A stretch of 20,000 nt of DNA from an uncultured virus (IMG/VR IMGVR_UViG_3300042893_000829) (IMGVR_UViG_3300042893_000829), one strand, 5' to 3'; shown: positions 1-20,000, counted from the stretch's first letter. The notes: generated from the letters alone by a model not told the origin. Numbers and translations are program-made.

Positions 1-397
1 CTGCGTTTGGAGAACCGATTGGTGCGTAATGCTCACCACCATCAACGGCTGCCGATTTGTAACCTTGGATTTTAGGTACAAAGAAGAACAATTTACCGAT
101 AGGTAAGTTCATTGCTTGTACAGAAACGATGTCGTTAGCTAACAATTTAGAGAAAACTCTTCTTACGATAGGGAAAACAACTGTTTCAAATGCTCCGTTA
201 GAACCTTCTGAAGTTGCTTCGTTAATCAAGAAAGAAGCTTGGTTTTCATATAACTGTGCTACGTTTTCTTTTAGGTGGCCTCTAAGACCTTCAAGGAACC
301 CTAATCTGTCCCATTTGTTTATAGTGTCTTCTTTGATAACTTTAAGGTGTTTTAACCCGATGTTACCTACAAGACCTGATTCTAATAATGCTCCCAT
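1..397 (-). CDS. Major capsid protein, T4 gp23-like (N-terminal 132 codons; runs off the left edge; absent from ORF track)
   Basis: Manual translation from ATG at 397: MGALLESGLVGNIGLKHLKVIKEDTINKWDRLGFLEG...AQLYENQ...VFPIVRRVFSKLLANDIVSVQAMNLPIGKLFFF. KW..LEG, ENQ and P.VRR....A.DIV.VQ.M..P.G..F are gp23-family hallmarks. Lies directly downstream of the protease and scaffold genes. Confidence 0.93.
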   Translation of the reverse strand, partial: MGALLESGLVGNIGLKHLKVIKEDTINKWDRLGFLEGLRGHLKENVAQLYENQASFLINEATSEGSNGAFETVVFPIVRRVFSKLLANDIVSVQAMNLPIGKLFFFVPKIQGYKSAAVDGGEHYAPIGSPNA

Positions 398-434
398 TTT
401 TTTTGGTTTTTTATTTTTTAGTTTATTTATTTAT

Positions 435-2213: not shown

Positions 2214-2238
2214 CTTTTATTTTGTGATGTTTATTCAA

Positions 2239-2245
2239 ATAAATA
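2239..2245 (-). promoter_or_regulatory. Putative phage late-promoter motif TATTTAT for scaffold-capsid operon
   Basis: Coding-strand TATTTAT 25 nt upstream of ATG 2213, just downstream of a terminator. Same motif precedes most structural genes. Confidence 0.55.
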
Positions 2246-2286
2246 CTTGATAAAATAAAAAAGTTCAGTTATTTTGATATAGATGC

Positions 2287-2322
2287 AAAAAAAAATGGAA
2301 ATGAACCTAATCATCTCCATTT
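2287..2322 (-). terminator. Intrinsic terminator after the DUF4494-like gene
   Basis: Minus-strand stem AAAUGGAGAUGA/UCAUUUCCAUUU, 6-nt loop, followed by a U tract. Confidence 0.7.
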
Positions 2323-2344
2323 ATTTTTTAAATAAAATTTGTTT

Positions 2345-2560
2345 TTATTCAATTACTTCGTCAATTTTACTTTCTGTAATTGAAGTTATTCTCCAATCCA
2401 TTGTGTAATTTTCATAAACTTTAGTAACTTTGGCTTCAACATCTGTAGGTGAATACCCTTTAACTAATTTTTCTTCTCTTGTTTTTTTTACTTTACCTGA
2501 TTCACTATCTAATAAATCAGATGCGATTTTAGCCACAAAATACTTTTCTCCTTGTTCCAT
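2345..2560 (-). CDS. Small protein resembling Bacteroidota DUF4494
   Basis: 71 aa. YFVAKI...SGKVKKTREEKLVKGYSPTDVEAKV resembles the DUF4494 N-terminal pattern (recognition from memory). Confidence 0.6.
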   Translation of the reverse strand: MEQGEKYFVAKIASDLLDSESGKVKKTREEKLVKGYSPTDVEAKVTKVYENYTMDWRITSITESKIDEVIE

Positions 2561-2578
2561 AATTATAATTTTTTTTTA

Positions 2579-2609
2579 TAAAAATAAGACTAATAATATT
2601 ATTTGTCAA
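2579..2609 (-). promoter_or_regulatory. Putative sigma-A-like promoter TTGA-N19-TATTTTTA
   Basis: TTGA at 2609-2606, TATTTTTA at 2586-2579, 18 nt before ATG 2560. Confidence 0.5.
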
Positions 2610-3336
2610 GAAATGAAGATAACTTATCCATTAAACTTTTTGTTTTATCAATAGATGTGGATTCCATTCCAGTCGCTCTTTCTATATTCATTTTTGTCTC
2701 CTCCTCAAGATTCTCATCATACTTACCTCTATCGTTCTTATCTAAGAATAAATAAGCTCCAGGAGTAGATGGTGATGATACCAAGTCAAAACAAATTAAT
2801 TCAAAATCATCTTGTACCTCATTTCTTTCCCCAACTTTTTTAAGTGATCCAACACCACGAGAAGAAATACCTAATGTAACCCCTTGACGTAAGTAGTTTG
2901 CCGCAATATCTCCCTTAGTTGAACATATCCCTCTTTCATGAAATCCAGGACTTGTAAGTAACCTTAATTTACCTAATAAAACAGGACCTTCCCACCAAAC
3001 TTCAGTTATCATATGTGATACTCTATCTAAATCTATTAAAGAAGATTCCGGGTGATTTAATTCAGAAAGAGAAGTTCCCTTCTCAATCATTTTTTTATAA
3101 TTCTCAGATTCTCTCTTTAATATTTTTTCTGGATAAACCCTACCATTTCTATTTGGCGTATCATATTTTTGTAGGACCGCATAGAATTCAAATGGTTTAG
3201 AATAATCCATAAAATTTTTGGACTCTTTTAATAAATCGTAATTTCTACCTTCTCTTGGATTAATGTATCCCGCATCATACTCAATAAGAATACCCTTACC
3301 CGTATCTCTAGGGCCTAAAATTTTATAACCGTTCAT
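2599..3336 (-). CDS. Prohead core protease, T4 gp21-like
   Basis: Motifs NRNGRVYP, ELNHP (catalytic His), GISSRGVGS (catalytic Ser), DLVSSPSTPGA. Confidence 0.93.
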   Translation of the reverse strand: MNGYKILGPRDTGKGILIEYDAGYINPREGRNYDLLKESKNFMDYSKPFEFYAVLQKYDTPNRNGRVYPEKILKRESENYKKMIEKGTSLSELNHPESSLIDLDRVSHMITEVWWEGPVLLGKLRLLTSPGFHERGICSTKGDIAANYLRQGVTLGISSRGVGSLKKVGERNEVQDDFELICFDLVSSPSTPGAYLFLDKNDRGKYDENLEEETKMNIERATGMESTSIDKTKSLMDKLSSFLDK

Positions 3337-3357
3337 AATTAGTTTTAATAATAAATA

Positions 3358-3825
3358 TTAAACTTTTTCTAATATTACCTTTACAGGTTTATAATTTCCA
3401 TTTTTTGTGAGAAAGAACTTAAAATAGTCATTTCCGGTTAGGACATCGTTATAAATTTCTTTAGTTAAATTTTTTAAGGATTTTTTTAATTTTGGTGATT
3501 TAAAATCTATTTCTTGGTTTAAAAATAAATTTATTTCTAAATTCATAAATGATTTTTTCTTTAGTTGTAGTCCGCTGGTTCTTAAGTCCATATCTACAAT
3601 AAATTTGTCGTCAAATAATGTTTTGTCTATATTTTGATAAACCGAATGTTTTATTGCCCTGTTCATGTTTAATACCACACGGGTCCAATTTTCAGATTCA
3701 ATTTTTGGTTCCGACCAAGTTTGAATATTTAAATAAAGTGATTTAAATTCTTTTGAGTCGACGGTCCCGTAATGTACTTTAGATGTTCTGAATCCATTTA
3801 TTTTTGTGGTTTTTCCTTTTTTCAT
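3358..3825 (-). CDS. Hypothetical protein (155 aa, basic)
   Basis: Intact ORF filling the gap between bS21 and protease; no recognised motif. Confidence 0.75.
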   Translation of the reverse strand: MKKGKTTKINGFRTSKVHYGTVDSKEFKSLYLNIQTWSEPKIESENWTRVVLNMNRAIKHSVYQNIDKTLFDDKFIVDMDLRTSGLQLKKKSFMNLEINLFLNQEIDFKSPKLKKSLKNLTKEIYNDVLTGNDYFKFFLTKNGNYKPVKVILEKV

Positions 3826-3859
3826 ATTTTTTTTTCATACCAATATCGTTTATTTTCAA

Positions 3860-3890
3860 TAAGTTTACGTATTTTTACGATATATATCAA
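3860..3890 (-). promoter_or_regulatory. Putative sigma-A-like promoter TTGA-N19-TAAACTTA
   Basis: TTGA at 3890-3887, TAAACTTA at 3867-3860, upstream of ATG 3825. Confidence 0.5.
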
Positions 3891-3914
3891 TATACAAGAA
3901 AATAAAACAAAAAT

Positions 3915-4100
3915 ATGCTAATAGTAAAAGTTAAAAGAGGGGATATTGAAAAAGCCCTGAAAGAATTAAAAAGTAAGGTGATAAAAACAAGACAAAATAG
4001 TCACCTAAATTATAAAAAAGAATTTACTAAAAAGTCAGTTGAAAAAAGACAAGAGTTGCAAAAAGCAATTTACAAACAGAAAATCCAAATAAAAGATTAA
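3915..4100 (+). CDS. rpsU: Ribosomal protein bS21 (phage-encoded)
   Basis: 61 aa, basic: MLIVKVKRGDIEKALKELKSKV...EFTKKSVEKR...KAIYKQ matches the bS21 pattern (IE.ALK..K.K, F.K.S..R). A-rich leader; opposite strand to neighbours; stop overlaps the convergent gene by 4 bp. Confidence 0.85.
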   Translation: MLIVKVKRGDIEKALKELKSKVIKTRQNSHLNYKKEFTKKSVEKRQELQKAIYKQKIQIKD

Positions 4101-4813
4101 AGATTCTTATTCAACTGCAATAGTTTGAAATAACTTAACTTATCAAAGGATTCTTTTTGAACTTTAACAATAGTTTCATTTATTCTTCCTAAAACTTCGT
4201 TGTTAGATTCCTCAGATTTAAGATCTTCTAATTTTTCAATTACCGTTTCTTTTAAAACATCGTACTTAATAACTAACTTATCATTACTTTCATTTAAAAT
4301 TGATGTTAATTTTTTCTTATCAGATTCCTCTAAGGTTGAGATATAATCATTAACTGTCTTATTAGCAACTTTTACCATTTTATCCATTGGGACCTTTGAT
4401 GTTTCTTCTTCGGTTACTGGTTGTTTTTTTAAGTTTTCTAATATAGTTTTTTTACTTTTAATTTTTTCCTCTAAATTTACAACACTTGAGGAGAATAAAT
4501 TATCAATATCATTATAGTTATTACCTGATTTTACATGACCTAACCATAACGATAATTCTTTAAGATTTAACTTATCAATTTTATTAATAATGTTTTCATA
4601 TATAATCGTACTTTGATTAATATATTCAGAACCTAAAGATTCGTTTAGTCCTTTATTCTTTGATAATTCATCGTAAAGGTAATAAAGTTTGCTTACGTTT
4701 TTATTGTTTAGAACAAGTTCCTTAAAAAGAAACACATCTTTTTTAAATGTGCCGTTTTCATAAGATTCGGTAAGGCACTTTTCTATTTTTGTTTTTAATA
4801 TTCCAAATTTCAT
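4097..4813 (-). CDS. Hypothetical helical protein downstream of portal (possible prohead core component)
   Basis: 238 aa intact ORF with its own TATTTATA motif (4827-4834); position matches T4 core genes between gp20 and gp21. Confidence 0.7.
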   Translation of the reverse strand: MKFGILKTKIEKCLTESYENGTFKKDVFLFKELVLNNKNVSKLYYLYDELSKNKGLNESLGSEYINQSTIIYENIINKIDKLNLKELSLWLGHVKSGNNYNDIDNLFSSSVVNLEEKIKSKKTILENLKKQPVTEEETSKVPMDKMVKVANKTVNDYISTLEESDKKKLTSILNESNDKLVIKYDVLKETVIEKLEDLKSEESNNEVLGRINETIVKVQKESFDKLSYFKLLQLNKNL

Positions 4814-4836
4814 AATCAGTTTTTATTATAAATATA

Positions 4837-6636
4837 TCAATCCTTTAATATTTTAAGTAATTCTTTTTCCATATCACCTAACGATGAGTTTGTGATATAC
4901 ATATCGTTATCAGTTTCTAATAGTAAATTTTCTAACTTGTTTCTTGATTCTGGTAAACCTTCAGGTCCTCCTGGTGGTGGTCCTCCCATTTCTGGTGGTC
5001 CTCCTGCTGGTGGGGATGGTGGTCCTCCCATTTCTGGACCTTCTCCTCCTTCTGGAGGCGCTCCCCCTGATTGGGTTGTTCCGGTAACGGTTTTATATAA
5101 TCTATCAATCGTATCAAACATTCCTGTATGGGTTATGATTGTTGCGGTATTTGCAAGTTCAGCGGCAACCGCTCTTTCCATTCTTTGTCTCTGGGTATCC
5201 AACTTAATGTCTTCATCTGAGAATCCAAATATATGTTTCTTAGCCCAAGTAGCTGAGGTCGGCGCCAATGAGTTTGGTATTTCACTTACCAAATCTTTAT
5301 AAAGTAAAACTTTTTCTTTCCACACATCAACCATTAATAGGTCAGCTTGTTTAGATGGATTGTTTAACCCTAATGTAAAGTTTTGTAATTCATCCTCAAA
5401 TCCTAATAAAAATAAATGGACAATCGCAATCTTATTTAATTCGGATAAAATATTTTTTTGTATTCTATTAATTGTTCTAGCAAAACGTATATCAAGTAAT
5501 GATAAATTTTTACCATCACCAACCGGTTCTTCAAATCCAAGATATGCTTTTGGTATTCTTAATGCACAAACAAGTTTCTTTTGAATATACTCAATATCGG
5601 CAATCTCAGAAAGATTTGTACCACCTGGTAAAGTTTCAATTGGCATTGTTTGTGTTGCATCTCTAACTGGAATAAAGTAATCCTGGTCAACCGCCATTTG
5701 ATTAAAACGTAAATCGACGTTACCCGTTTTATTGTCAACAATTTGGTCACGTTTAAATTTGTTTGCAACACGTTGTACATATGCTTCAACATCTTTATCG
5801 TCCATATTACCAACGAATACTTTAAAAACCCTTCTTTCGGGGGCTCTTGATGTACGATAAATTAACATAGCATCTTCAGACAAAACCAATTGTTTCCAGA
5901 TACGACGAGCTTTTTCTAACATTGAGGTTCCGTAAGGTAACTTTCTATCATCTCCAAGTAATCTAAAGTGGGCAACTTCAAATGTATTGAATTCCATTTG
6001 TTTTTCTTTCCACTTAAATCTTAAACCTTTTTCGTCCGGTTTAACTTCTGAATTGGGAGTTCTAGGTGACATTCCCTTTTCAAGCCTTTCAACCTCAATA
6101 TTTGGTAATTGAACACAACCAATTATTCCTTTTTCGGAATCTAATTTAAGATAAACAAAATTATCACCATATTTACAAGTGTTTCTAATCCACATCTGTA
6201 GGTTAGTGTTAATATCTAAAGTGTTGTTAAATAAATCGGCTAATATTCCTTTTATTCTTTTTGATTCGGAGTAAATTTGTAAAATATGACCATCTTCATT
6301 TGGTGTTGTTGATTCTTCCGCATATATATCTAAAGCAGTAGAAATCTCTGGAGTAAATTCCATAGATTCATAATCATAAAATGCTGCAATTCTTGTTGGT
6401 TCATAATAAATGGCTTGTGTATAAAGATTACTCTCTATTTTAGTCCATTGATTGGCCATATATAATGACTGTTGAGCTTGTAATTTTTCTTTTTCAAACT
6501 CGTTTCTATCTCTAGTTTTTAATAGTTCTTTTTTGTCAAATTTGTACGTCGGAACATCTTGACCCAATAATGAATTTGGTCCGAATGCCTTTGATAATCT
6601 TTGCCAAACTGTTAGTTGATTAAAGTTTTGTTCCAT
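4837..6636 (-). CDS. Portal protein, T4 gp20-like
   Basis: Motifs EDAMLIYRTSRAPERRVF, DYFIPVR, IETLPGG, DIEYIQKKL..AL.IP, DIRFARTINRIQ; Pro/Gly-rich C-terminal tail. Confidence 0.93.
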   Translation of the reverse strand: MEQNFNQLTVWQRLSKAFGPNSLLGQDVPTYKFDKKELLKTRDRNEFEKEKLQAQQSLYMANQWTKIESNLYTQAIYYEPTRIAAFYDYESMEFTPEISTALDIYAEESTTPNEDGHILQIYSESKRIKGILADLFNNTLDINTNLQMWIRNTCKYGDNFVYLKLDSEKGIIGCVQLPNIEVERLEKGMSPRTPNSEVKPDEKGLRFKWKEKQMEFNTFEVAHFRLLGDDRKLPYGTSMLEKARRIWKQLVLSEDAMLIYRTSRAPERRVFKVFVGNMDDKDVEAYVQRVANKFKRDQIVDNKTGNVDLRFNQMAVDQDYFIPVRDATQTMPIETLPGGTNLSEIADIEYIQKKLVCALRIPKAYLGFEEPVGDGKNLSLLDIRFARTINRIQKNILSELNKIAIVHLFLLGFEDELQNFTLGLNNPSKQADLLMVDVWKEKVLLYKDLVSEIPNSLAPTSATWAKKHIFGFSDEDIKLDTQRQRMERAVAAELANTATIITHTGMFDTIDRLYKTVTGTTQSGGAPPEGGEGPEMGGPPSPPAGGPPEMGGPPPGGPEGLPESRNKLENLLLETDNDMYITNSSLGDMEKELLKILKD

Positions 6637-6733
6637 ATTGAAAATTTAGTTTATAATTCTTAAATATAAATATTTACTATTCTTACATTTTAAAGTTAAT
6701 CAACAAACATTAAGTAAAAATTAGAATCTGCAC

Positions 6734-6931
6734 TCATATATTCGTATTTGTTGGTGTTGGTGTTGGGGGTATTTGTTTTAGGTCTACTGGATGCCCTTCA
6801 TAAGTTTCCGGTTTTTTCTTATACCCAAAAGAGTTCTCAAATTTTTTATACCCTAAAATGGGTTGTCCGGGAACCACTAAAGTGGATCCATTAATTTGTT
6901 TTCCCGATGTTCTTCTAAGTTCTAACCCCAT
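6734..6931 (-). CDS. Small hypothetical protein (65 aa)
   Basis: ORF between terminase and portal on the same strand, with TATTTATA immediately upstream (6935-6942). Confidence 0.55.
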   Translation of the reverse strand: MGLELRRTSGKQINGSTLVVPGQPILGYKKFENSFGYKKKPETYEGHPVDLKQIPPTPTPTNTNI

Positions 6932-6942
6932 TTTTATAAATA

Positions 6943-8712
6943 TTATCTACCACCAAATAACCAACCATGTTTAATATAATCTTCTTTTGAGGGTCCTGAA
7001 TTCATGTTGTATCTGTGTGAGGCCGCATTCAAATTTGGAAGTACCGGATTAAAGTAAATATCTTTACCCACACTATCGTTATTACTTATAGTCCACGATT
7101 CAAGCATAACCTTTGTTTGTTCCGTTACCTTTTCAAGTTTTGCGAAGGATGTTTCACCAACATATATTGCCATTGATATTCCCATTATAAGGTCGTCGTG
7201 TTGCCCCCTTTGGTGGTCTGGTCTACCATTAAGATATATAAAAGTATTCATTTCATTATATAAACGAATGCTTTTAATTTTAAATTTGTGTCTTACATAT
7301 TCCTCAAAAGAGGCGATAATTTGAACTCTTTTATTATTAAAACTTATACCAGGTATTTTTTCCTGCGCCTTTGCGTTATAACTCCATATATTTGTTGTGT
7401 CAAAACCATCAACATATAAATTCTTATAACCAAGTTCTTGCATTTTTCTAATCGTAGTGACACCCATACCTCCAGTAATATCCACCACTACAAACGCACT
7501 ATACATTAACCCCCATTTATATGCAATTTCCGCCAAAGCGTCAGGTGGTATTTTACCCACATATTCTAGAACCTGTTCTCTAGTGTCAAAATCAATTATC
7601 TGTATTGATGAAAAATCCTCACTATCCCCACGAGAAACGTCAACCCCCATTATATACTTATGACCCTCTTTAGGTTCTTCCCACATCCATAAAGAATTAC
7701 CCATTAACTTTGTTTTAGGTTCTTCTATAGAATTATTTTTAATATATTCTAATTGTTTGTTGTCAAATACGTTATCTCCGGAACCTAAAAATTCACAATT
7801 TAACTCCTGATTAATTTTTCTTTTATCATATTTAAGTTTTTTAACCATTTTTTCATACCAAGAAGAACAGGGTTTATAACCCTTTTTAAAATATGATGTT
7901 AGTTCGTCATAATCTCTATGATACGGATCAATATGTTCAAACGATACGTGTTTTAACGGATCTTGTTCATCTTTATGTAGTAAATAATGAACTAAATCGT
8001 CTGTTGGGACTAAATATAAATCTTTTGAGTATCTTGGGTCTCTGAACCAAAACATCTCAGAGATTTTAAAGTTATTCATTCCTTTTAAAGATTGGTCATA
8101 AATCTCGTAATAAATTGGGTCATACCCGTTAGGTGTGGAAACCACAATTACCTTACCCCCTGTTGATAGGGACGCCATACAAGCTGCCCAGAAATCGCTA
8201 TCAGCCTCAATAAATGCCGCTTCATCAAATACAAGTATCGTAGGGGTAAATCCACGTAAGGCATCCTTTGATGTCGCAACGGCCTTAACTTCACTACCAT
8301 TAGTTAGTTTATAATGTTTTTGTGAATTTTTGTCTACCGAAAACCCAGCACCAACCCAAGAAGGCCATTGGTCAACAAAGGCACGAATCTTATTAGCCAT
8401 CTCCATTGAGGTGTCCAATTTATTTGCAATTATTAGTATTTTCTCAGGTTGTGTTTTTTTTGCAAAAACTAATCGTTTAGATATCCAAGCGGCGGTTACC
8501 GTAGTTACACCGGCTTGTCTATATTTTAATGCAATATTCTCCTCAAATTCCTCATAATCATTTAATAAGGAAATTTGGTCAGGAAATAATCCCAATGGAA
8601 CGTACTTTGATACTGTGTTGTCGTATGTTTGTAAATAAGTTCTAAGAGCATATGGAGTGTCTTTCATACACTTAACATACTCTATCATTAACTGTTCTTT
8701 AGATAAACCCAT
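6943..8712 (-). CDS. terL: Terminase large subunit, T4 gp17-like
   Basis: Walker A-like KYRQAGVTT, Walker B ILVFDEAAF, motif III STPNG, RNase H-like nuclease MGVDVSRG and HDDLIM. Confidence 0.93.
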   Translation of the reverse strand: MGLSKEQLMIEYVKCMKDTPYALRTYLQTYDNTVSKYVPLGLFPDQISLLNDYEEFEENIALKYRQAGVTTVTAAWISKRLVFAKKTQPEKILIIANKLDTSMEMANKIRAFVDQWPSWVGAGFSVDKNSQKHYKLTNGSEVKAVATSKDALRGFTPTILVFDEAAFIEADSDFWAACMASLSTGGKVIVVSTPNGYDPIYYEIYDQSLKGMNNFKISEMFWFRDPRYSKDLYLVPTDDLVHYLLHKDEQDPLKHVSFEHIDPYHRDYDELTSYFKKGYKPCSSWYEKMVKKLKYDKRKINQELNCEFLGSGDNVFDNKQLEYIKNNSIEEPKTKLMGNSLWMWEEPKEGHKYIMGVDVSRGDSEDFSSIQIIDFDTREQVLEYVGKIPPDALAEIAYKWGLMYSAFVVVDITGGMGVTTIRKMQELGYKNLYVDGFDTTNIWSYNAKAQEKIPGISFNNKRVQIIASFEEYVRHKFKIKSIRLYNEMNTFIYLNGRPDHQRGQHDDLIMGISMAIYVGETSFAKLEKVTEQTKVMLESWTISNNDSVGKDIYFNPVLPNLNAASHRYNMNSGPSKEDYIKHGWLFGGR

Positions 8713-11156: not shown

Positions 11157-11553
11157 ATACTACTTTTTTTTCAAATTCTAATACAAGATCTCTCTCATAC
11201 AGTTTATCTTTAACTATCTGTTCCTCATCACCAAACTTGAAAACAAGTCGTTTGACTAATGAGAAATCAATGTCTTCTTCTTTTTCCCAACCCAAAGCCA
11301 ATACACCGTCTATTGAATCCTGAACAGAAAATACATCTGAGTTTTGCACCAACTCTAATGTTATTTCCCCGTTGGTTAAGGTACCAACCTTTTTCACGTG
11401 TTCAACATCTGGAGGACTTGGGTATCCATTAGCTGGTTTTAATTCCCAACCTTCACCCCAAATCTCATCAATACTATCTGAAAATATAAATTCATAAATG
11501 TTTTCTCCCCTATAATTTGGGCCTAATCCATTTATGTAAATTAAAAAACTCAT
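11146..11553 (-). CDS. Hypothetical protein (135 aa)
   Basis: Intact ORF with ATGA overlap with the upstream gene (translational coupling). Confidence 0.75.
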   Translation of the reverse strand: MSFLIYINGLGPNYRGENIYEFIFSDSIDEIWGEGWELKPANGYPSPPDVEHVKKVGTLTNGEITLELVQNSDVFSVQDSIDGVLALGWEKEEDIDFSLVKRLVFKFGDEEQIVKDKLYERDLVLEFEKKVVYEN

Positions 11554-13016
11554 AGTACTTTACCGTTCGTTGTTATTTTTCTTTCTGTTAAACCATCAAT
11601 AAAAACTAAATTACCTTTATTAGATAAACCGGCTAATTTTGATGTTGGGTTTATTTCAATAAATTTAAGAGACATTCTTTCTTGTTTAATATTTTCAGAT
11701 AATCTTTTTATTCCTTTAATATTTTTTTCTCTTAATTTTTCCATTTCTTCTTTTCTTTTAATTCCCTTACTTTCGTTAATCATTACATCCTTGTTAGTAA
11801 TATTAAAATATTTTGAAATAATTTTATCCACTTTTGACTCACCAAATGTTCCGTGTTCAAAATGGTTATAATTTCTTTGACTGGTTCTTGCCCCATGTTT
11901 AGGATATTCTTCACCCATTTCACCACTCATTTTAGATAGACCATCAGCCATTGTTGTTGTTGCCAAACGATTAACCGCATCCCCAAGTGTAGGTGTGTCA
12001 TATTCAGTCATTTCTCCTCCTTCTGGTGGTGGTGGAGGTAATTCATCATCTCCCATATCTGAAGGTTCTTCCATTGATAAATCTTCGTCTTCATTGTCAT
12101 CATCCTCTTCGTCTTTATCTTCATCATCATAATCACCCTCTAATCTTGATATAATTTCTTCAAGATCATCATCGTCTAATACATCAACATCAATAGCGGA
12201 TAAAATAGAATTAATAATGTATTTAACATCATTACCATCCATTTCATCTTTATCGTTAAATTTTCTGATTTTTTGTGCTAATTTACCTGTAAGTTTCTGG
12301 ATAATTTTAAAAGAAGTTCCTTCTTCTTTTTTTGATTCGTCACCCATATCATCTCCCATATCATCAGGAAGTGGTGGCATTTCATCATCCATATCTCCCA
12401 TATCATCACCCATTCCTTCCGGTGGTGGAGGCATATCACCTCCCATATCATCACCCATTCCTTCCGGTGGTGGAGGCATATCACCTCCCATATCAGATGG
12501 TGGTGGGGGCATATCACCTCCCATATCATCAACAGGTACCGGTGGGGTAATAGGTGCCGGTGGGGTAATAGGTGCCGGTGCCGGAGCTAATTCTGGTGCC
12601 GGAGATGGTGTGGGAATTTCTTCCGTATTTGTTTTAGGTAATCTTAGTTTAAACTTTTTTTTTTGCTCTGTAAAAAGAGAGATACCTTCATCGTTTCCGT
12701 ACAAACCGTTGTATTCTTTGGCCATTAAATTTAATCTTTTTAAGGCTTGGGAATATGATGGGTAGTATTTCCTACTTTGCATAGGTTCAACATAATCTGT
12801 TATAGATTCGTTTAAACTTAGTTTAATAATATAACCTTGTCTTTCTTTAACAATAGCATATGTGTTACCATCCGCCAAAGGTATAGTGTATTCAGTTGAT
12901 TTGTTTTCATTTATGGATTGTGGTAAAACTTCGTTAAATCTGGCAATTTCCATAATTCTACGAATCTTGTCCATACCTTGCAATTTTTCACTTCCAATAG
13001 GTCTTAATCCTCCCAT
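11550..13016 (-). CDS. Hypothetical protein (488 aa) with Pro/Gly/Asp/Met-rich repeats, probable head-associated
   Basis: Intact ORF, first of an operon preceded by TATTTATA (13048-13055) and TATTTAT (13061-13067). Confidence 0.75.
   Translation of the reverse strand: MGGLRPIGSEKLQGMDKIRRIMEIARFNEVLPQSINENKSTEYTIPLADGNTYAIVKERQGYIIKLSLNESITDYVEPMQSRKYYPSYSQALKRLNLMAKEYNGLYGNDEGISLFTEQKKKFKLRLPKTNTEEIPTPSPAPELAPAPAPITPPAPITPPVPVDDMGGDMPPPPSDMGGDMPPPPEGMGDDMGGDMPPPPEGMGDDMGDMDDEMPPLPDDMGDDMGDESKKEEGTSFKIIQKLTGKLAQKIRKFNDKDEMDGNDVKYIINSILSAIDVDVLDDDDLEEIISRLEGDYDDEDKDEEDDDNEDEDLSMEEPSDMGDDELPPPPPEGGEMTEYDTPTLGDAVNRLATTTMADGLSKMSGEMGEEYPKHGARTSQRNYNHFEHGTFGESKVDKIISKYFNITNKDVMINESKGIKRKEEMEKLREKNIKGIKRLSENIKQERMSLKFIEINPTSKLAGLSNKGNLVFIDGLTERKITTNGKVL
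12395..12580. repeat. In-frame tandem repeats (45-bp and 18-bp units)
   Basis: 45-bp units starting at 12395 and 12440 (GDMPPPPEGMGDDMG) with a partial copy at 12485; 18-bp unit twice at 12539-12574 (APITPP). Confidence 0.9.
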
Positions 13017-13090: not shown

Positions 13091-13828
13091 TTATTGTTTC
13101 ATAGATAATTTTTTATCTATAATTTCTGTCGGTATGTCATATAGTTTTTCAATATAACCATTTCTTCTAATTAATTTGAACGCTAGATTCTCAAGTGACA
13201 TTTCTCCACCTTTTTCTAACCCACAATTTCTAAACTTTTTAAGCTTTTCTTTGTATTTCTTTACAATTGACTTTATTTCATCCGGACTTTCATCTTTGAT
13301 GTTATCAACAACACCATCAATAATTTTCATCCATTGTTTTGATTTTTCCTTTATTAATTCCACATCAATATCTTTCATATCACCTTTATTTGGTTCATTT
13401 ACCCACATGTCGTAAAGGATTGAATAAACCCCAGAACTAAAGGTAACTCCAGTTTCGTCTTGGACAAAACACTCAACTTCGTACCCAAACAATTTTATAT
13501 TATGTTTTTGATTAAATACTATTTTTTTTAAATCAAAAAACTCCATATATAAATCTTTTGCATTTTCAGGAAACTGAGAATAATTTAATACGATGTGTAA
13601 ATCAACATCAGAATATTTTGACCAATTATAATTAGTTAAAGAACCTATCATTATTATGTCTGTTATTAGGATATCTATACCTAAAAAATCTATAAATAAA
13701 TTTGAAACCTCTAATAATTTTTTTCTAACTTCTGGGTTTATTTCGTATTTATTACCTTTTTTATTCCAGATTTTAGAATTAAGTTCATTTTGTGTTTCAA
13801 AACTTTTTAAAATTTCCGTATTATTCAT
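13091..13828 (-). CDS. Nucleotidyltransferase, DNA polymerase beta superfamily
   Basis: Signature hGS-x10-DhD: IIMIGSLTNYNWSKYSDVDLHI, with a third carboxylate candidate in YEVECFVQD. Confidence 0.8.
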   Translation of the reverse strand: MNNTEILKSFETQNELNSKIWNKKGNKYEINPEVRKKLLEVSNLFIDFLGIDILITDIIMIGSLTNYNWSKYSDVDLHIVLNYSQFPENAKDLYMEFFDLKKIVFNQKHNIKLFGYEVECFVQDETGVTFSSGVYSILYDMWVNEPNKGDMKDIDVELIKEKSKQWMKIIDGVVDNIKDESPDEIKSIVKKYKEKLKKFRNCGLEKGGEMSLENLAFKLIRRNGYIEKLYDIPTEIIDKKLSMKQ

Positions 13829-13852: not shown

Positions 13853-14098
13853 TTAACTTAACTTTTTATATTTAAATACCTTTGAAATGTTTGTATTAAA
13901 AAACGACCCTTGTGATTTAGCGGTTCTAAATTGGGTATATGTTTGGTGAGGAACTTCTTCATATTCGTATCTCATACCATTTTTAAATTCCGTAATCATT
14001 TTTTTAGTTTGAGTGTCGTATTCTGTCTTAATGATATTAGATGACTCAACCTCATTTAAAATTTTTGTTCCTTTTATTTCTTCTTTAGTAATTGCCAT
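13853..14098 (-). CDS. KTSC-domain protein
   Basis: VESSNI....YD......F.NG..YEY..VP...Y..F..A.S.GSFFN..I is the KTSC pattern. Confidence 0.88.
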   Translation of the reverse strand: MAITKEEIKGTKILNEVESSNIIKTEYDTQTKKMITEFKNGMRYEYEEVPHQTYTQFRTAKSQGSFFNTNISKVFKYKKLS

Positions 14099-14159
14099 AA
14101 TGTTTTTTTATATAAATATATTTTTAATAAAAAAAAAATACACCCTTTTGGGTAAAAAC

Positions 14160-14174
14160 CTGACAAAATGTCAG
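14160..14174. promoter_or_regulatory. Perfect inverted repeat CTGACA-AAA-TGTCAG, putative operator upstream of clpC
   Basis: Seen directly in the divergent KTSC/clpC intergenic region, 36 nt upstream of the putative -33 element. Confidence 0.55.
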
Positions 14175-14210
14175 TATTATAAAAAACAAACTAACAAGTT
14201 GTTAAAATTA

Positions 14211-14241
14211 TTGACTACATACGACCTTATAGTTACACTTA
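14211..14241 (+). promoter_or_regulatory. Putative sigma-A-like promoter TTGA-N19-TACACTTA for clpC
   Basis: TTGA 14211-14214, TACACTTA 14234-14241, 16 nt before ATG 14258. Confidence 0.5.
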
Positions 14242-14257
14242 TGTAAAACAAATTATT

Positions 14258-16312
14258 ATGATAGAATTTATTGATGAGGGAGATAAAAATAAAAAAAAAC
14301 CTGAAGGGGGTGGAACACCAGTTTTAGATAATTTTAGTAAAGATTTAATTAAACTTGCAAGTCAAGGAAAATTAGACACAGTGATTGGTCGTGAAAAAGA
14401 GATTTTAAGAATTGCCCAAGTATTGTCAAGAAGGAAAAAAAATAACCCCATCATTATTGGAGAACCTGGAGCGGGTAAAACGGCAATAGTTGAGGGTCTT
14501 GCAATGATGATACATAATGGGGATTGTCCTAAAAATTTATCCGAAAAAAGAATTGTTTCGTTAGACATTAATTCAGTTGTTGCTGGTACAAAATATAGAG
14601 GTCAATTTGAAGAGAGAATGAAGGTGATTATTGAAGAGATACAAAGTAACCCAGATATAATTATTTTTATAGATGAGGTACACACAATGGTTGGTGCGGG
14701 TAATAGTTCAGGGTCATTAGATGCATCAAATATATTCAAACCAGCATTATCTCGTGGTGAAATACAATGTATTGGGGCCACAACATTAGACGAATACCGT
14801 AAACATTTTGAAAAGGACGGAGCTCTTGAAAGAAGGTTTCAAAAAATAATTGTAGACCCTTCAACAAAAGAAGAAACATTAGAAATTTTAAAACAAAGTA
14901 AGGGTAAATACGAAGAACACCATAATGTGAATTATAGTGATGAGTCATTACGTTTATGTGTAGAATTGGCAGATAGATATATAACAGACCGAGAATTTCC
15001 AGATAAGGCGTTTGATATCTTAGATGAGGTCGGTTCAAGAATGCAAATAGATATTAAACTCCCAGAACATATTGAAAAATTAAAACAGATATCTCAAGAT
15101 ATAAAAAGGGAAAAGGCTGAGGTTATTAAAAAACAAAACTATGAGTTAGCGGCAGAACTTAGAGATAGGGAAAAAAATATATTAACACAATTAGAGGCTG
15201 GAAAAAGAAAATTTGAGGAAGAACTTAAAAATAGTAAAAGACATATTCCAGAAGATTTAATTTATGAAGTTGTGTCTAATATGACTAAAATTCCTGTAAG
15301 TAAAATTAATATTGATGAAAAAAATTCATTAGTTAGTCTTGAAAAGACTTTAAATTCTACGGTTATTGGTCAAGAGGATGCGGTTGGAAAAATATCAAAA
15401 TCAATTAGAAGAAATAGAGTTGGTATTAAAGATCCTAATAGACCTATTGGGTCATTTATTTTCTTGGGGTCAACCGGTGTTGGTAAAACGTTTTTGGCTA
15501 AAAGATTGGCTAAAGAAATTTTTGGTAATGAAGATAGTTTAATTAGAGTTGATATGTCTGAATACCAAGAAAAACACACCATCTCTAGATTAATTGGGTC
15601 ACCTCCAGGATACGTTGGTCACGAAGAAGGTGGACAACTTACAGAACAAGTTAAAAACAAACCATATTCGGTTATTTTATTTGATGAAATTGAAAAAGCA
15701 AATAAAGACATATTTTCAACATTACTCCAGATGTTAGATGATGGACATATGACTGATGGTCTTGGTAGAAAAATCAATTTTAAAAATTGTTTAATAATTA
15801 TGACATCAAACATTGGGGTTAGAAAAGTTCAAGAGTTTGGTGGAGGAATGGGATTTAAAACAAACAATACAAGTGAGGAAGTTCTTGAGGAACATAAAAG
15901 AGACATTATTAAAAAGGAATTAAGTAAGTTTTTTGCTCCTGAATTTTTAAATAGAATTGATGATGTAATTATCTTTAATTCACTTAAAAAAGAACATGTG
16001 GATAAAATAGTTAAACTTGAGATCGATATCCTTATTAAAAGATTAAAATCAATGAGATATAATTTTACATATGAAGAATCTGTTGTTACGATCATATCTA
16101 AGGTGGGGTTTGATGAAACATACGGAGCAAGACCAATTAAAAGGGCAATCCAAAATAAGATTGAAGATTTAATTTCAGAAAAAATACTTCTTAGTGAAGT
16201 TGTTGAGGGTACCGAATATATGTTACTTGTAAAAGAGGGTGAGGAGATTGTAATTGAAGACCACACAATTCAGGAACCAAAGAAACGAGGTAGAAAGAAA
16301 AAGGAGGATTAA
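14258..16312 (+). CDS. clpC: ClpC-type Hsp100 AAA+ ATPase lacking the N-terminal Clp-repeat domain
   Basis: Two AAA modules (GEPGAGKT/IFIDE, GSTGVGKT/LFDEIEK), pore loops KYRG and GYVG, short UVR-like middle domain (QNYELAAELRDRE), ClpP-docking-type MGF loop. Confidence 0.92.
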   Translation: MIEFIDEGDKNKKKPEGGGTPVLDNFSKDLIKLASQGKLDTVIGREKEILRIAQVLSRRKKNNPIIIGEPGAGKTAIVEGLAMMIHNGDCPKNLSEKRIVSLDINSVVAGTKYRGQFEERMKVIIEEIQSNPDIIIFIDEVHTMVGAGNSSGSLDASNIFKPALSRGEIQCIGATTLDEYRKHFEKDGALERRFQKIIVDPSTKEETLEILKQSKGKYEEHHNVNYSDESLRLCVELADRYITDREFPDKAFDILDEVGSRMQIDIKLPEHIEKLKQISQDIKREKAEVIKKQNYELAAELRDREKNILTQLEAGKRKFEEELKNSKRHIPEDLIYEVVSNMTKIPVSKINIDEKNSLVSLEKTLNSTVIGQEDAVGKISKSIRRNRVGIKDPNRPIGSFIFLGSTGVGKTFLAKRLAKEIFGNEDSLIRVDMSEYQEKHTISRLIGSPPGYVGHEEGGQLTEQVKNKPYSVILFDEIEKANKDIFSTLLQMLDDGHMTDGLGRKINFKNCLIIMTSNIGVRKVQEFGGGMGFKTNNTSEEVLEEHKRDIIKKELSKFFAPEFLNRIDDVIIFNSLKKEHVDKIVKLEIDILIKRLKSMRYNFTYEESVVTIISKVGFDETYGARPIKRAIQNKIEDLISEKILLSEVVEGTEYMLLVKEGEEIVIEDHTIQEPKKRGRKKKED

Positions 16313-16326
16313 AAACCCTCCATTTT
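16298..16326. terminator. Possible bidirectional terminator between convergent clpC and OmpA-like gene
   Basis: GGAGG (16303-16307) / CCTCC (16317-16321) flanked by A and T tracts; short stem. Confidence 0.4.
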
Positions 16327-16328
16327 TA

Positions 16329-17099
16329 TTATTTTACATCATAAACACCATAAGGAATATCCCCTAAAGAGTTTTCCCTTTTAAATTCCCTTACTTTTTG
16401 TTTAAATTTATCTAAATATTGTTCAGGTATCTTAACACAAACTCTTTTAATTTTCCGTTTTGGGTTTGGTCCTGGTTTTGGTTTAATTACTTTTTTATTA
16501 ACAATTTTTGGTCCTGGTTCTGGTATATATGTATTAGTATTGTCACCTTTTTCAGCTTTAATTGGTACGTTCATTGTTCCTACACCAGATATTGATGCGG
16601 AAACATATTGTTCTTTTGTTGAAGCCGCGCTATCTTTTACTGTTGATTTACCAATAACTGTTGCTCCTGGCGTTACATTCAATCTTAGTGATTGCGAATT
16701 ATCTTTTATAAGTTTTATTAAATTATCCCTTCTTCTTGTAGCCAAAGATTTATTATTATAACCAGAAGAACTATTAACGGCTGAAGCCCCACCATTCACA
16801 ATAACATTAACACTACCTTTTGTTACTTTTAATAAGTCAGATATTGTAAGTAATATTTCTTTAATTTTTGGGTCATTTTTATTAATTATATCAATACCGT
16901 TTGAAAATGTAGAACTACCGTATGATGTTATAGTATATGGGATATTAAATCCATTTGGATATTTTTTTTTCTGTCTGTCTTCAGAACTTATATCCTGACC
17001 ACCTAAAGCTTCAGAAATTAAATAATGATTTTTTGTTGCGTCTTTATGTTGATTAAGTATGTTTTTCTTTTCTTCTTCTGTAATTATAAATTTTTTCAT
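16329..17099 (-). CDS. Hypothetical protein with probable OmpA-like (peptidoglycan-binding) domain
   Basis: F.NG, V.V.GGAS and YNNKSLATRR resemble the OmpA-C pattern F..g / I.Gh.d / N..LS..RA. N-terminal KKFIITEEEKKNIL leader; no signal peptide. Confidence 0.55.
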   Translation of the reverse strand: MKKFIITEEEKKNILNQHKDATKNHYLISEALGGQDISSEDRQKKKYPNGFNIPYTITSYGSSTFSNGIDIINKNDPKIKEILLTISDLLKVTKGSVNVIVNGGASAVNSSSGYNNKSLATRRRDNLIKLIKDNSQSLRLNVTPGATVIGKSTVKDSAASTKEQYVSASISGVGTMNVPIKAEKGDNTNTYIPEPGPKIVNKKVIKPKPGPNPKRKIKRVCVKIPEQYLDKFKQKVREFKRENSLGDIPYGVYDVK

Positions 17100-17138
17100 A
17101 TTTGATTTTTATTATAAATATAATAAACTATGAAAAAA

Positions 17139-17924
17139 TTAATGTTTGGTGTAACCTAAATTTTCAATCATTAACTTACCAACCTTAATTCCGTTATAGG
17201 TATCCTCAACAACAACATACTCATTTCTTGTATGATAGTTGTAATATCCAATGGAGATATTAAAACAAGACAGACCAAAGTTTTTATTTAGTGGGTATAT
17301 GTCAGTATATGGGTGCCTATGATATTTTGTATCTCCAGGAAAATGTTCCGTTATCAAACTACCCCCAACGTTAAAGAATTCACTATCTCTATTAAACATT
17401 GGTCTGTTCATTAGAAATTCTGAAATCATATTGTTTTCTGGAGCGTCGAATTGAATTACGTACCCGACATTAGTGAAGAATTCAGGATCCGCATTAAACG
17501 AACCTTTACATCCTGTTTCCTCAGCAACAAAAAATGCCGCTTTAAGGTTCGGTAATTCATTTAAAAGTTCCAAACAACCATACACACCACACTTATCATC
17601 ACCGCCAATACCGGTTGGTTCGCCATCATTATTGTAAGCCTTTAAAGAAAGTTTAATTTCTTTCTGGGCATTAGGTAATTGTTCTTCAACAACATTGATT
17701 GAATCAATTGTATGTACGGTATCCGTATGTGCAACCACACAAGGAAAATAATCAATATTCTCATCAGTTTGTTTTGTGGCGTAGATATTGTAAAATTGGT
17801 CAACGTAGAAGGGGATTTTATTTTCCTCCAACCAAGTTGTTATAAAATCAATCATCAAATCTTCTTGATAAGTTTTTGTGGGAACAGATAAAACCTGTTT
17901 TAATAACTCAAAATTTCTTTCCAT
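17139..17924 (-). CDS. Zn-dependent peptidase, M20/M28/M42-like (clan MH)
   Basis: Metal-ligand motifs AHTDTV, GGDDKCG, AEETG, FD, YHT. Confidence 0.87.
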   Translation of the reverse strand: MERNFELLKQVLSVPTKTYQEDLMIDFITTWLEENKIPFYVDQFYNIYATKQTDENIDYFPCVVAHTDTVHTIDSINVVEEQLPNAQKEIKLSLKAYNNDGEPTGIGGDDKCGVYGCLELLNELPNLKAAFFVAEETGCKGSFNADPEFFTNVGYVIQFDAPENNMISEFLMNRPMFNRDSEFFNVGGSLITEHFPGDTKYHRHPYTDIYPLNKNFGLSCFNISIGYYNYHTRNEYVVVEDTYNGIKVGKLMIENLGYTKH

Positions 17925-17928
17925 ACCA

Positions 17929-17936
17929 CAAATATA
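17929..17936 (-). promoter_or_regulatory. Bacteroidota -7 element TATATTTG, implying a leaderless peptidase mRNA
   Basis: Exact TAnnTTTG match ending 4 nt before ATG 17924; no clear -33 element. Confidence 0.5.
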
Positions 17937-17951
17937 TAAAACTTATTTGAA

Positions 17952-19040
17952 TTAAAAAAATCTTTCTATTATTATTCTACTTTCTTTAAACAATTCTGGA
18001 TGGTAAAGGAATAAGTTTAACCCTTCAAAATCAACGGATCTGTCTTTTGTTATTGATCTAAGGGAACCATCATAATCCGGGTGACTAGTATCATATTGAA
18101 CAACTAAACGAACTTTATTTGTCATTGGATCAATACCTTTAATTACATATTTTATTGTTTTATCTTTTGGTAAAGTTAATACATTTTTAAATCCACCAAG
18201 TTCAATAATCTTATTTAATAAATTTTTATACTCTTCAATATCAACATACTTATCAGAATCTTCAATTTCATCACTTATTTTATCTAATATGTTAGACACA
18301 TCCCTTTGAAATCCCTCACTATCAAAGTCGTTACAATACGTGTTATATTCCAACTCATACCAACCACCGATATTAGTTTTTGTGTATCTACTAATTAATA
18401 AGGTTAAAAGTTCCTTTAGGTCGTATGTGGGACACTTTAATTGTTTATACCAATGATATATAATCCCAACATTTGTTTCATATCTACGTCCATTATATAT
18501 TTCTTTTATTCCAAATCTAACATATGGATTTTTTGTTTCACTATTAATTTCTTCTTTTACTGCCCTTTCTATACAGTCACGATCTCTATAACCATATTCA
18601 TAAATTATTTCATCACTTTCACTTGGGAATGACTGAGTTAAAAATTGCGCTATTTTATCCTTATCTCCACCAATTAATGAAGGATTTAAAAACCTTAAAA
18701 TATTATTAAGTTTTAGGGTGTTAGATTCATCAAAATTATCCAATAAATAACCTTCTCTAAAATCCTCTTCGTATCTATAATAATCTATGTCAGAACCATA
18801 ACTATCATAATTAAATCTTCTATATGTGTATATATCATCATCATCATCAACACCCAGAGTGTATAAAAAATCCTCCTCATCTGGAAATTCAATAATAATA
18901 GTACTTGCTTTTTTATTATCCTTGTCTTGACTAATATAATCCACCAGTTTGTCATCAGTATATATGGTTCTATTCCAGGACACATCTTCTCCTTTAACTA
19001 ATTCGTCTAGCAATTCATATAACTCACTATTTTTCTCCAT
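17952..19040 (-). CDS. Hypothetical protein (362 aa, Asp/Glu/Tyr-rich)
   Basis: Long intact ORF with TATTTAT at 19046-19052; no recognised motif. Confidence 0.75.
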   Translation of the reverse strand: MEKNSELYELLDELVKGEDVSWNRTIYTDDKLVDYISQDKDNKKASTIIIEFPDEEDFLYTLGVDDDDDIYTYRRFNYDSYGSDIDYYRYEEDFREGYLLDNFDESNTLKLNNILRFLNPSLIGGDKDKIAQFLTQSFPSESDEIIYEYGYRDRDCIERAVKEEINSETKNPYVRFGIKEIYNGRRYETNVGIIYHWYKQLKCPTYDLKELLTLLISRYTKTNIGGWYELEYNTYCNDFDSEGFQRDVSNILDKISDEIEDSDKYVDIEEYKNLLNKIIELGGFKNVLTLPKDKTIKYVIKGIDPMTNKVRLVVQYDTSHPDYDGSLRSITKDRSVDFEGLNLFLYHPELFKESRIIIERFF

Positions 19041-19061
19041 ATAAAATAAATATCAAAAAAT

Positions 19062-19100
19062 TTTGATTATTGTAATTTTACATTTATATTTGTATTTATA
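19062..19100 (+). promoter_or_regulatory. Tandem promoter signals for tmRNA: TTTG-N19-TATATTTG followed by TATTTATA
   Basis: TTTG 19062-19065, TATATTTG 19085-19092 (Bacteroidota -33/-7 consensus), TATTTATA 19093-19100. Confidence 0.65.
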
Positions 19101-19123
19101 ATATAACAAGTTATTTGACATAT

Positions 19124-19523
19124 GGGGGTGTTTTTGGATTTGACAGGTATTGGCTGAAGACAAAGGGCACGTGGAGACTGAATTAATCTCCTTAAAAACT
19201 GATTCACAAAAACAATCGGCGACGTTTTATCGAAAATGGAAACTCTTGGTTTACTAAGAGGTTCTGAAGTTACTGTAGCCTAATAGGTTTACGGAAACGG
19301 GGGGTCGGTCAGACAGATAACCTAGCAACAGAAGTCGTTGATGAGTTTGTTTTCACTCTAAAAGAAGACAAAACGGGCGTGGTTCCCCGTAAGAACTACC
19401 ACCGTCGCTGAGTGGTGTGAGAACTCAGATATTTCGGAAGGTATAACAAACCTTGACCTAAACGTGTAGTCCTTCTCTGACAGGATATTATGGACCGGAG
19501 TTCGAGCCTCCGCACCTCCACCA
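19124..19523 (+). ncRNA. ssrA: tmRNA (one-piece, 400 nt); tag (A)GDVLSKMETLGLLRGSEVTVA**
   Basis: 5' GGGGGUG pairs with 3' CACCUCC-ACCA including G3:U70; GGAUUUGAC D-loop-like segment; T-arm CGGAG-UUCGAGC-CUCCG; PK1 (GGAGA/UCUCC with UGAAU/AUUCA); tag frame 19218-19286 with stops in a hairpin loop. Confidence 0.95.
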
Positions 19524-19528
19524 AATGT

Positions 19529-19556
19529 AAACCTCATCTTCGGATGGGGTTTTTTT
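19529..19556 (+). terminator. Intrinsic terminator after tmRNA
   Basis: AAACCUCAUC-UUCG-GAUGGGGUUU followed by a U tract. Confidence 0.88.
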
Positions 19557-19827: not shown

Positions 19828-19865
19828 GCTTTCAATTTAATTTAAAGTTTATGTTAAAAATAAAA

Positions 19866-20000
19866 ACCTGAGATTACAGTTTTTTTTAAGTGTCTTTCGA
19901 GTCATTATTGGTTCTACTCTTATCCACAGGATTTTGTCCCGTAACACTCATTACCGATTGGTTAGACCAATCACCCCTTGACGATACAACTACTCTCTTA
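19866..20000 (-). ncRNA. Probable 3' end of a large structured ncRNA (possibly GOLLD/ROOL-class), truncated by window edge
   Basis: Nested minus-strand helices: 19956-19972 hairpin, 19926-19942 hairpin, 19943-19950 with 19887-19894, and 19988-19997 with 19870-19881. G:U pairs work on the minus strand; GC is above the intergenic background. Confidence 0.5.

Follow-up and report, generated by a model that had tools for sequence, protein, structure and literature searches.

A stretch of 20,000 nt of DNA from an uncultured virus (IMG/VR record IMGVR_UViG_3300042893_000829), referred to below as the window, contains between positions 14258 and 19523 a gene for a ClpC-type unfoldase, a gene for a PepT-like peptidase and a transfer-messenger RNA (tmRNA) gene with a 21-codon tag. 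The window corresponds to positions 64471–84470 of a 91,986-bp record with a CheckV completeness of 31%, which places the complete genome near 300 kb; complete relatives of 296–321 kb fit this estimate. The source is a lake-water phage of huge size (about 300 kb) whose head is T4-like. Sequencing runs of lake and freshwater metagenomes contain the same DNA (17 rows with at least half of the sampled words, none of them RNA), and a megablast search of GenBank phages gave no match to the region. The coding density under translation table 11 is 94% (greedy calling of open reading frames, ORFs), and an alternative genetic code was ruled out as unneeded.

The unfoldase gene (14258–16312, plus strand) encodes a class I Hsp100 protein of 684 residues that consists of two AAA+ modules, a short UVR/M-domain and a ClpP-docking loop (GGGMGF), and that has no N-domain. 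Domain searches identified AAA (84.7 bits), AAA_lid_9 (94 bits), AAA_2 (219.7 bits) and ClpB_D2-small (70.3 bits), as well as the UVR motif PF02151 at residues 281–308 (25.5 bits against a cut-off of 21.5), in keeping with the ClpC-like ATPase named in a preliminary description of this DNA. The protein aligns end to end, in one piece, with residues 148–799 of Staphylococcus aureus ClpC (E 1.6e-214), whereas its alignment with ClpB breaks into two separate stretches. The NCBIfam equivalog cut-offs were not reached for ClpB (794 versus 1232 bits) or ClpA (701 versus 993 bits), and no ClpC equivalog is listed there. The nearest cellular ClpCs are those of Flavobacteriaceae, at 56–59% identity; they contain 848–869 residues including the N-domain, and the phage protein starts at their linker. 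No match to Clp_N (PF02861) was found in the phage ClpC or anywhere in the related records G000–G003, and the protein is consequently named here ClpC-like without N-domain, rather than canonical ClpC. The Clp_N repeats dock MecA, McsB and phospho-arginine substrates; in their absence, both the regulation and the substrate choice of the phage ClpC must differ.

Relatives were sampled as the best 80 of at least 596 IMG/VR ClpC relatives, with identities of 66–100% (the own clade below). The first Walker A motif is preceded by only 64–98 residues in all 74 own-clade ClpC ORFs with a complete 5′ end. The GGGMGF loop precedes the sequence PEFLNR, and the corresponding loop in Flavobacteriaceae ClpC is GVGF; the function of such [LIVM]-G-[FL] loops is ClpP docking. 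All 80 own-clade loci retain a [VIM]GF form of the loop. The region upstream of ClpC (14099–14257) contains two small hairpins (approximately 14141–14174) and, near 14112, a motif resembling TATAAATA; comparable ATAAATA motifs are located just 5′ of several minus-strand genes and may represent a phage promoter.

The tmRNA gene (19124–19523, plus strand) matches Rfam family RF00023 over the full model (positions 1–374) with 100.9 bits against a cut-off of 47, so that the tmRNA of the preliminary description is clearly present. In the acceptor stem, 5′ GGGGGUG pairs with CACCUCC, which is followed by ACCA; the stem thus contains a G3:U pair, an identity element of alanyl-tRNA synthetase, and a 3′ CCA. 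ARAGORN called no tmRNA in the window, even at a relaxed threshold, and it likewise fails on the tmRNAs of several relatives (L269, L272 and L273). Since ARAGORN is the usual tmRNA caller in phage surveys, this family may be under-counted in published catalogues. A promoter-like element, TTTG-N19-TATATTTG (19062–19092, plus strand), lies 32 nt 5′ of the tmRNA start and is the single match to TTTG-N19-TAnnTTTG in the window, where 1.15 would be expected by chance. The TAnnTTTG element, which we take to be the Bacteroidota sigma-A consensus, precedes the tmRNA gene in 61 of 66 relatives. A hairpin with a T-run resembling an intrinsic terminator (19529–19552, plus strand) directly follows the CCA end. 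Sigma-A-like promoters had been ascribed to all of the genes in the preliminary description; this did not hold up, as sigma-70-like matches between 13800 and 20000 show no excess (26, versus 32.9 ± 5.9 in shuffled sequence) and the conserved element is found only at the tmRNA.

The tag reading frame (19218–19280, plus strand) comprises 21 codons, GDVLSKMETLGLLRGSEVTVA, with the resume codon GGC, placed by the Rfam alignment and by comparison with relatives, and is followed by two stop codons, UAA (19281–19283) and UAG (19284–19286). In five Flavobacteriaceae genomes the resume codon is also GGC, and the tag consists of nine residues (GENNYALAA or GEDNYALAA). Against these, the phage tag was rightly described beforehand as odd. 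It shares the initial glycine and, judged by its sequence, is a long derivative of the Bacteroidota-type tag. The frame is open over 20–22 residues in 65 of 67 copies (the window and 66 loci), the other two being cut by locus ends, and the last residues of the tags are V-x-V-A, VVA or VAA. Variability within 38 distinct tags of 21 codons is greatest at the third codon position (entropies of 0.825 at the first, 0.524 at the second and 1.175 at the third position), and single-nucleotide codon differences in the tag frame are predominantly synonymous (2366 versus 1115 non-synonymous). This excess is confined to the tag frame, as the other two frames give 1562 synonymous to 3197 non-synonymous and 591 to 4759. 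The codon periodicity and the synonymous excess indicate that the tag peptide is under selection. A point against peptide constraint alone is that the middle of the tag (the LGLxR region) coincides in part with a conserved RNA hairpin in which compensatory changes occur; RNA structure thus explains some of the constraint on the tag.

The peptidase gene (17139–17924, minus strand) encodes 261 residues. The predicted model (mean predicted local distance difference test score, pLDDT, of 91.6) is most similar in Foldseek searches to the M20B tripeptidase PepT (PDB codes 3gb0 and 1fno; E 1.5e-12 and 2.3e-12), with a query-normalised TM-score of 0.77–0.78. Residues H66, D68, D109, E135, E136, D160 and H231 are invariant among 23 sequences; from their counterparts in M20 enzymes, we assume that they serve as di-metal ligands and as the catalytic Asp and Glu. 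The Pfam M20 score (21.9 bits) is below the cut-off of 24.6, and the protein matches phrog_4191, annotated as 'peptidase' (3.9e-35). The modelled fold and the invariant residues together support the earlier assignment to clan MH, despite the subthreshold Pfam score. The phage enzyme shares the metal and catalytic residues of PepT, and differs in that it consists of the catalytic domain only: it is 261 residues long versus 373–410 for the matched structures, the target-normalised TM-score is 0.51–0.56, and the lid/dimerisation domain is missing. A peptidase gene was found in 78 of 80 own-clade loci in two forms, one of approximately 261–281 residues on the minus strand and one of approximately 340–370 residues on the plus strand.

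The three genes are closely linked throughout the own clade. The tmRNA is located 2–5 kb downstream of ClpC, on the same strand, in 67 of the 80 loci (66 detected with nhmmer, and L074 with Rfam); the remaining 13 loci end 34–5,513 nt past ClpC, short of the expected position of the tmRNA. ClpC, peptidase and tmRNA are found together in all 67 informative loci. The complete genome of relative G002 has ClpC first, then an ORF, the peptidase, the acidic-protein gene g362 and the tmRNA, followed by about 9 kb of other genes, which include a SusC-like outer-membrane barrel protein and an M23 peptidase, then by about 25 tRNAs and, further on, by ClpP, the whole spanning about 27 kb.

ClpP is encoded in seven of the 21 larger own-clade records, including two of the three complete ones, at 20–28 kb from ClpC (81 kb in G003). 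Two of these 21 records encode SmpB: in G016 its gene follows the tmRNA by about 0.5 kb, and in G003 it is separated from the tmRNA by about 7 kb. The absence of smpB and clpP from the window, pointed out previously, extends to the whole 92-kb contig, which is 31% complete and ends 11 kb past ClpC. ClpS was not found in G000–G003 or in G028, a genome of the sister clade. A comparison by eye of tag type with the presence of ClpP or SmpB in the own-clade records gave no pattern; both traits track phylogeny.

Related pairings recur outside the own clade. In the sister clade, an ortholog of the peptidase (48–50% identity, E 1e-69 to 1e-76) is located 2.9–7.6 kb from ClpP in all five genomes that have it (G028, G043, G047, G053 and G058). 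The same tag family is found there on tmRNAs that are unlinked to ClpC, for example GNILENATVGHFVAEDAAVVA in G028, and also in G047 and G058. G028 additionally contains a second ClpP gene 591 nt upstream of a second tmRNA, within the series DnaJ, metallopeptidase, ClpP, tmRNA and FKBP. When viral contigs were sampled with this tmRNA-adjacent ClpP (80 loci), the second type of tmRNA was found 0.1–2 kb downstream of ClpP, on its strand, in 41 loci, which all rank within the top 47 matches. Of the positives examined with Rfam, 12 of 12 were confirmed, and none of 11 negatives gave a hit. These tmRNAs, from huge-phage contigs (L282–L328), carry another long tag of about 25–26 residues and are followed by tRNAs. 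In both complete genomes of this group, the Clp/Hsp100 ATPase is at least 120 kb away. Among ClpC, ClpP, peptidase and tmRNA, three different pairings thus recur in three arrangements.

A Flavobacteriales-like member of the Bacteroidota is the probable host, on account of the affinity of the phage ClpC to those of Flavobacteriaceae, the SusC-like protein of G002, the promoter motif of the tmRNA and the start of the tag.

The genes that surround the three are of diverse nature. Between the peptidase and the tmRNA, and divergent from the latter, lies g362 (17952–19040, minus strand), which encodes a fast-evolving acidic protein with a clade-conserved position and 22–41% identity to its relatives; it was found in most own-clade loci. 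It has no match in Pfam, PHROG, NCBIfam or Atlas, and its model (pLDDT 86.4) has no Foldseek match at E ≤ 0.001, the best VIA-align hits being generic helical chains (Z 5.8). Whether g362 could partner the tmRNA as an SmpB-like or RNA-binding protein was considered, and the family, fold and Atlas searches gave no support for this. A 256-residue ORF (g256; 16329–17099, minus strand) without Pfam, PHROG or NCBIfam matches is a variable insert, with homologs only in four of the 80 related loci (L007, L013, L045 and L071).

On the other side, a protein of 81 residues with a KTSC domain (13853–14098, minus strand; PF13619, 63 bits) is arranged head to head with ClpC. KTSC is the most deeply conserved ClpC neighbour, adjoining it in the own clade and in 35 of 84 loci of a second, more distant sample (described below). 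It is followed by a 245-residue protein (13091–13828, minus strand) that matches phrog_36119 (4.6e-37) and has a weak nucleotidyltransferase-like match (NTP_transf_2, 19.8 bits, below the cut-off of 21). This protein is kept 5′ of ClpC in the own and sister clades, and tblastn detects it in the own-clade loci and in 23 of 84 loci of the second sample. A protein of 488 residues (11550–13016, minus strand) with long acidic, Pro-rich low-complexity repeats (DMGGDMPPPP-like) is conserved between the large terminase gene (terL) and ClpC. The first part of the window (1–8712, minus strand) is a T4-like head and packaging block with the Gp23 capsid protein, S77 prohead protease, Gp20 portal and large terminase. 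The bS21 homolog reported earlier is present, embedded in this block (3915–4100, plus strand; 61 residues); it scores 32.5 bits against PF01165 (cut-off 27), and 24 bits against TIGR00030, under the cut-off of 28.95. Farther away, positions 1–58000 of the contig are rich in glycan-modification genes (glycosyltransferases, a sulfotransferase, APS kinase, methyltransferases and an epimerase), a large set for a phage, and also encode PhoH and dUTPase.

Downstream, the tmRNA borders an island of RNA genes. The 3′ part of a GOLLD RNA (RF02032, 287.7 bits against a cut-off of 150; L005 1335–1739) is convergent with the tmRNA, about 340 nt downstream of it, and occupies positions 19865–20000 on the minus strand, continuing to contig position 84739, 269 nt past the window end. 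A tRNA array at contig positions 90194–91502 (L005 7194–8502, minus strand) contains tRNAs for Asp, Glu, Met, Ile and His that reach the Rfam gathering score. ARAGORN also reports in this array a 'tRNA-Stop' with the anticodon tta, which Rfam does not list and which is doubtful as a UAA suppressor.

We favor a reading, with a probability of about 0.5, in which the three genes, each transcribed separately, belong to a loose, functionally related proteostasis and translation-support toolkit located at the edge of the RNA-gene island. The alternating strands (ClpC plus, peptidase and g362 minus, tmRNA plus), together with the terminator of the tmRNA itself, indicate that the genes are not one operon. 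In the proposed sequence of events, the tmRNA would be made from its own host-type promoter, presumably charged with alanine and delivered by host SmpB and EF-Tu, and would rescue stalled ribosomes during infection, adding a phage-specific 21-residue tag with a hydrophobic end. The N-domain-less ClpC would most likely pair with host ClpP, or with phage ClpP where present, free of N-domain-docking adaptors, and the oligopeptides so produced would be trimmed by the small PepT-like enzyme. What the data establish is which genes are present, that the tag is conserved and that the juxtapositions recur; delivery of tagged proteins to the phage ClpC would be a hypothetical further step.

Several observations weigh against this reading and against a dedicated module. 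Own-clade loci are collinear all the way from the portal gene to the tmRNA (about 15 kb), with variable inserts between members, and their synteny therefore counts as one evolutionary event that is little specific to the three genes. The complete relative G001 encodes neither ClpP nor SmpB. Four GenBank megaphages have a ClpC at 45–57% identity; two of these, LR745206 and LR756502, are without a tmRNA over the cut-off, and the remaining two carry theirs at a distance of more than 100 kb. The LR745206 ClpC served as the query for a second IMG/VR sample (80 loci), and tmRNAs were searched for in 37 of its records, picked by eye and mainly contigs of at least about 59 kb. A tmRNA over the Rfam cut-off is present in five of these 37 ClpC-bearing records, and in four of the 10 whose completeness is 90% or more (seven of 10 if short tRNA-like matches under the cut-off, not counted here, are included). 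The distances between tmRNA and ClpC in this sample are 51–212 kb, and no case falls under 10 kb. The order terL, g465, g135, g488, nucleotidyltransferase, KTSC, ClpC is retained in many of these loci, at 40–44% identity in terL, with no peptidase, g362 or tmRNA downstream of ClpC. The deep partner of ClpC is thus the flank of the packaging block, and not the tmRNA. Accordingly, the co-occurrence and synteny anticipated in the preliminary description hold for the trio in all informative own-clade loci, and fail in distant phages, where no tmRNA is near ClpC.

The neighborhood of RNA genes is a further confound. In 38 related loci, the next gene after the tmRNA is GOLLD. Megaphage-type loci have GOLLD (10 loci) and tRNAs 1.5–6 kb upstream of ClpC. 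In the lineage with ClpP beside the tmRNA, tRNAs follow the tmRNA, and they also lie within 6 kb in eight of 11 ClpP loci without a tmRNA. Clp genes thus recurrently border islands of tmRNA, GOLLD and tRNA genes, and their closeness may stem from a joint auxiliary region or from shared expression timing, and not from direct coupling.

These data bear on the explanation that the genes are coincidental neighbors, with ClpC belonging to the terL–KTSC block, the tmRNA to the RNA-gene island, and the peptidase being an unrelated auxiliary or virion-associated protein, and with their adjacency frozen by collinearity. The conserved terL-to-ClpC order in phages with neither tmRNA nor peptidase within 10 kb, the succession of tmRNA, GOLLD and, further on, tRNAs, the placement of the members on different strands with variable inserts between them, and the location of the sister-clade peptidase next to a T4_baseplate-family gene are all expected if this explanation is correct. 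It accounts less well for the recurrence of three pairings in three arrangements in genomes of 290–380 kb, given that one given pair would come within about 5 kb by chance in roughly 3% of cases (an estimate) and that co-occurrence was predicted beforehand. On balance, we regard coincidence as rather unlikely.

The toolkit reading must also be distinguished from a stricter pathway, in which the tag is an orthogonal degron read directly by the N-domain-less ClpC, the substrates are fed into ClpP and the peptides recycled, all as one co-evolving module. Consistent with such a pathway, the tag is long (21–22 residues), clade-specific and conserved as a peptide well past its C-terminus, unlike GENNYALAA; the ClpC has lost the adaptor-binding N-domain and retained the ClpP loop; the trio is never split in the own clade; and Clp–tmRNA and Clp–peptidase juxtapositions recur in other lineages. 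However, a ClpC lacking the N-domain is often encoded by phages that have no tmRNA. ClpC ORFs in the second sample are short in 45 of 84 cases, long in 34 and undetermined in five, which also counts against our preferred reading; many of the short ones are from genomes without a tmRNA, and the idea that loss of the N-domain is tied to the adjoining tmRNA was thereby ruled out. Sister genomes pair the same tag family with a full-length ClpC at least 50 kb away (the ClpC of G028 retains Clp_N), and in the other lineage the neighbor of the tmRNA is ClpP rather than ClpC, with the unfoldase far removed. The RNA hairpin that overlaps the conserved middle of the tag accounts for part of its conservation, and the tag ends may not be orthogonal, since V-x-V-A, VVA and VAA resemble the non-polar ends read by ClpX. 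We therefore consider the strict pathway improbable. The private translation quality-control pathway put forward in the preliminary description is thus partly supported: the unbroken linkage of the trio in the own clade, selection on the tag, the ClpP loop, the ClpP and SmpB genes of some relatives and the recurrent pairings speak for it, while a dedicated module is not seen in distant phages.

The features described here resemble known systems in part. As in bacterial trans-translation (ssrA; tmRNA–SmpB with ClpXP/SspB or ClpAP), the phage tmRNA fits the full model and has the G3:U pair, the CCA end, an in-frame tag and a double stop, and the tag ends in non-polar residues and Ala. It differs in the length of the tag (21 residues, versus nine in Flavobacteriaceae) and in the neighbors of the tmRNA, which are clpC or clpP and not smpB; no smpB is present in the phage contig, and SmpB is found in just two of 21 relatives. 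The cellular readers of ssrA tags are ClpX, ClpA and SspB. Similarly, the phage ClpC shares the two AAA+ rings, the UVR/M-domain and a VGF-type ClpP loop with the Firmicute ClpC–MecA–ClpP system (Bacillus subtilis and S. aureus; PDB codes 6em8 and 3j3s), from which it differs by the lack of the two Clp_N repeats.

Among phages, the main text of a survey of huge phages of at least 200 kb describes tmRNA, SmpB, bS21 and tRNA arrays, and gives Bacteroidetes as hosts of some of the clades (Al-Shayeb et al. 2020, PMC7162821). 'Clp' is absent from that main text as a word-start term, and the tmRNAs there were called with ARAGORN, which misses the present tmRNA. The passages on Clp genes in the report on jumbo phage Atu_ph07 and Rak2-like phages (PMC6102473) list ClpX, ClpA, ClpB, ClpP and ClpS, for which functions in assembly, replication and aggregate clearing are proposed; these phages infect another host phylum, and those passages contain no link to tmRNA and no N-domain-less ClpC. 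Phage-borne ssrA genes are described in mycobacteriophages and Bacillus phage G, which are other phage groups, and the passages concerned describe no association with Clp genes (PMC4131195). In SPO1, a phage adaptor-like protein is reported to modulate host ClpCP (PMC6873191), and GOLLD near tRNA clusters has already been noted (PMC6582537). A literature search that covered neither subscription journals nor supplements found no description of a phage tmRNA–ClpC or tmRNA–ClpP linkage, or of such long tags.

Phage tmRNAs and phage Clp proteins have thus been known separately; here, tmRNAs with conserved tags of 21–26 residues are repeatedly found beside parts of the Clp machinery. The Clp partner next to the tmRNA varies, being ClpC in one lineage and ClpP in another, and the minimal peptidase follows Clp genes in two arrangements. 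An adaptor-free ClpC that occurs naturally, together with candidate new degrons, could serve as tools. In its most far-reaching and quite speculative form, which we think unlikely, the proposal is that huge Bacteroidota phages run their own route from trans-translation to degradation: host readers would handle the long, lineage-specific tag poorly, and it would be read instead by the adaptor-free ClpC or, in other lineages, by a phage ClpP partner encoded beside the tmRNA, so that the phage would decide the fate of stalled products, with the PepT-like peptidase finishing the process. These findings provide a concrete, testable hypothesis on the purpose of phage tmRNAs.

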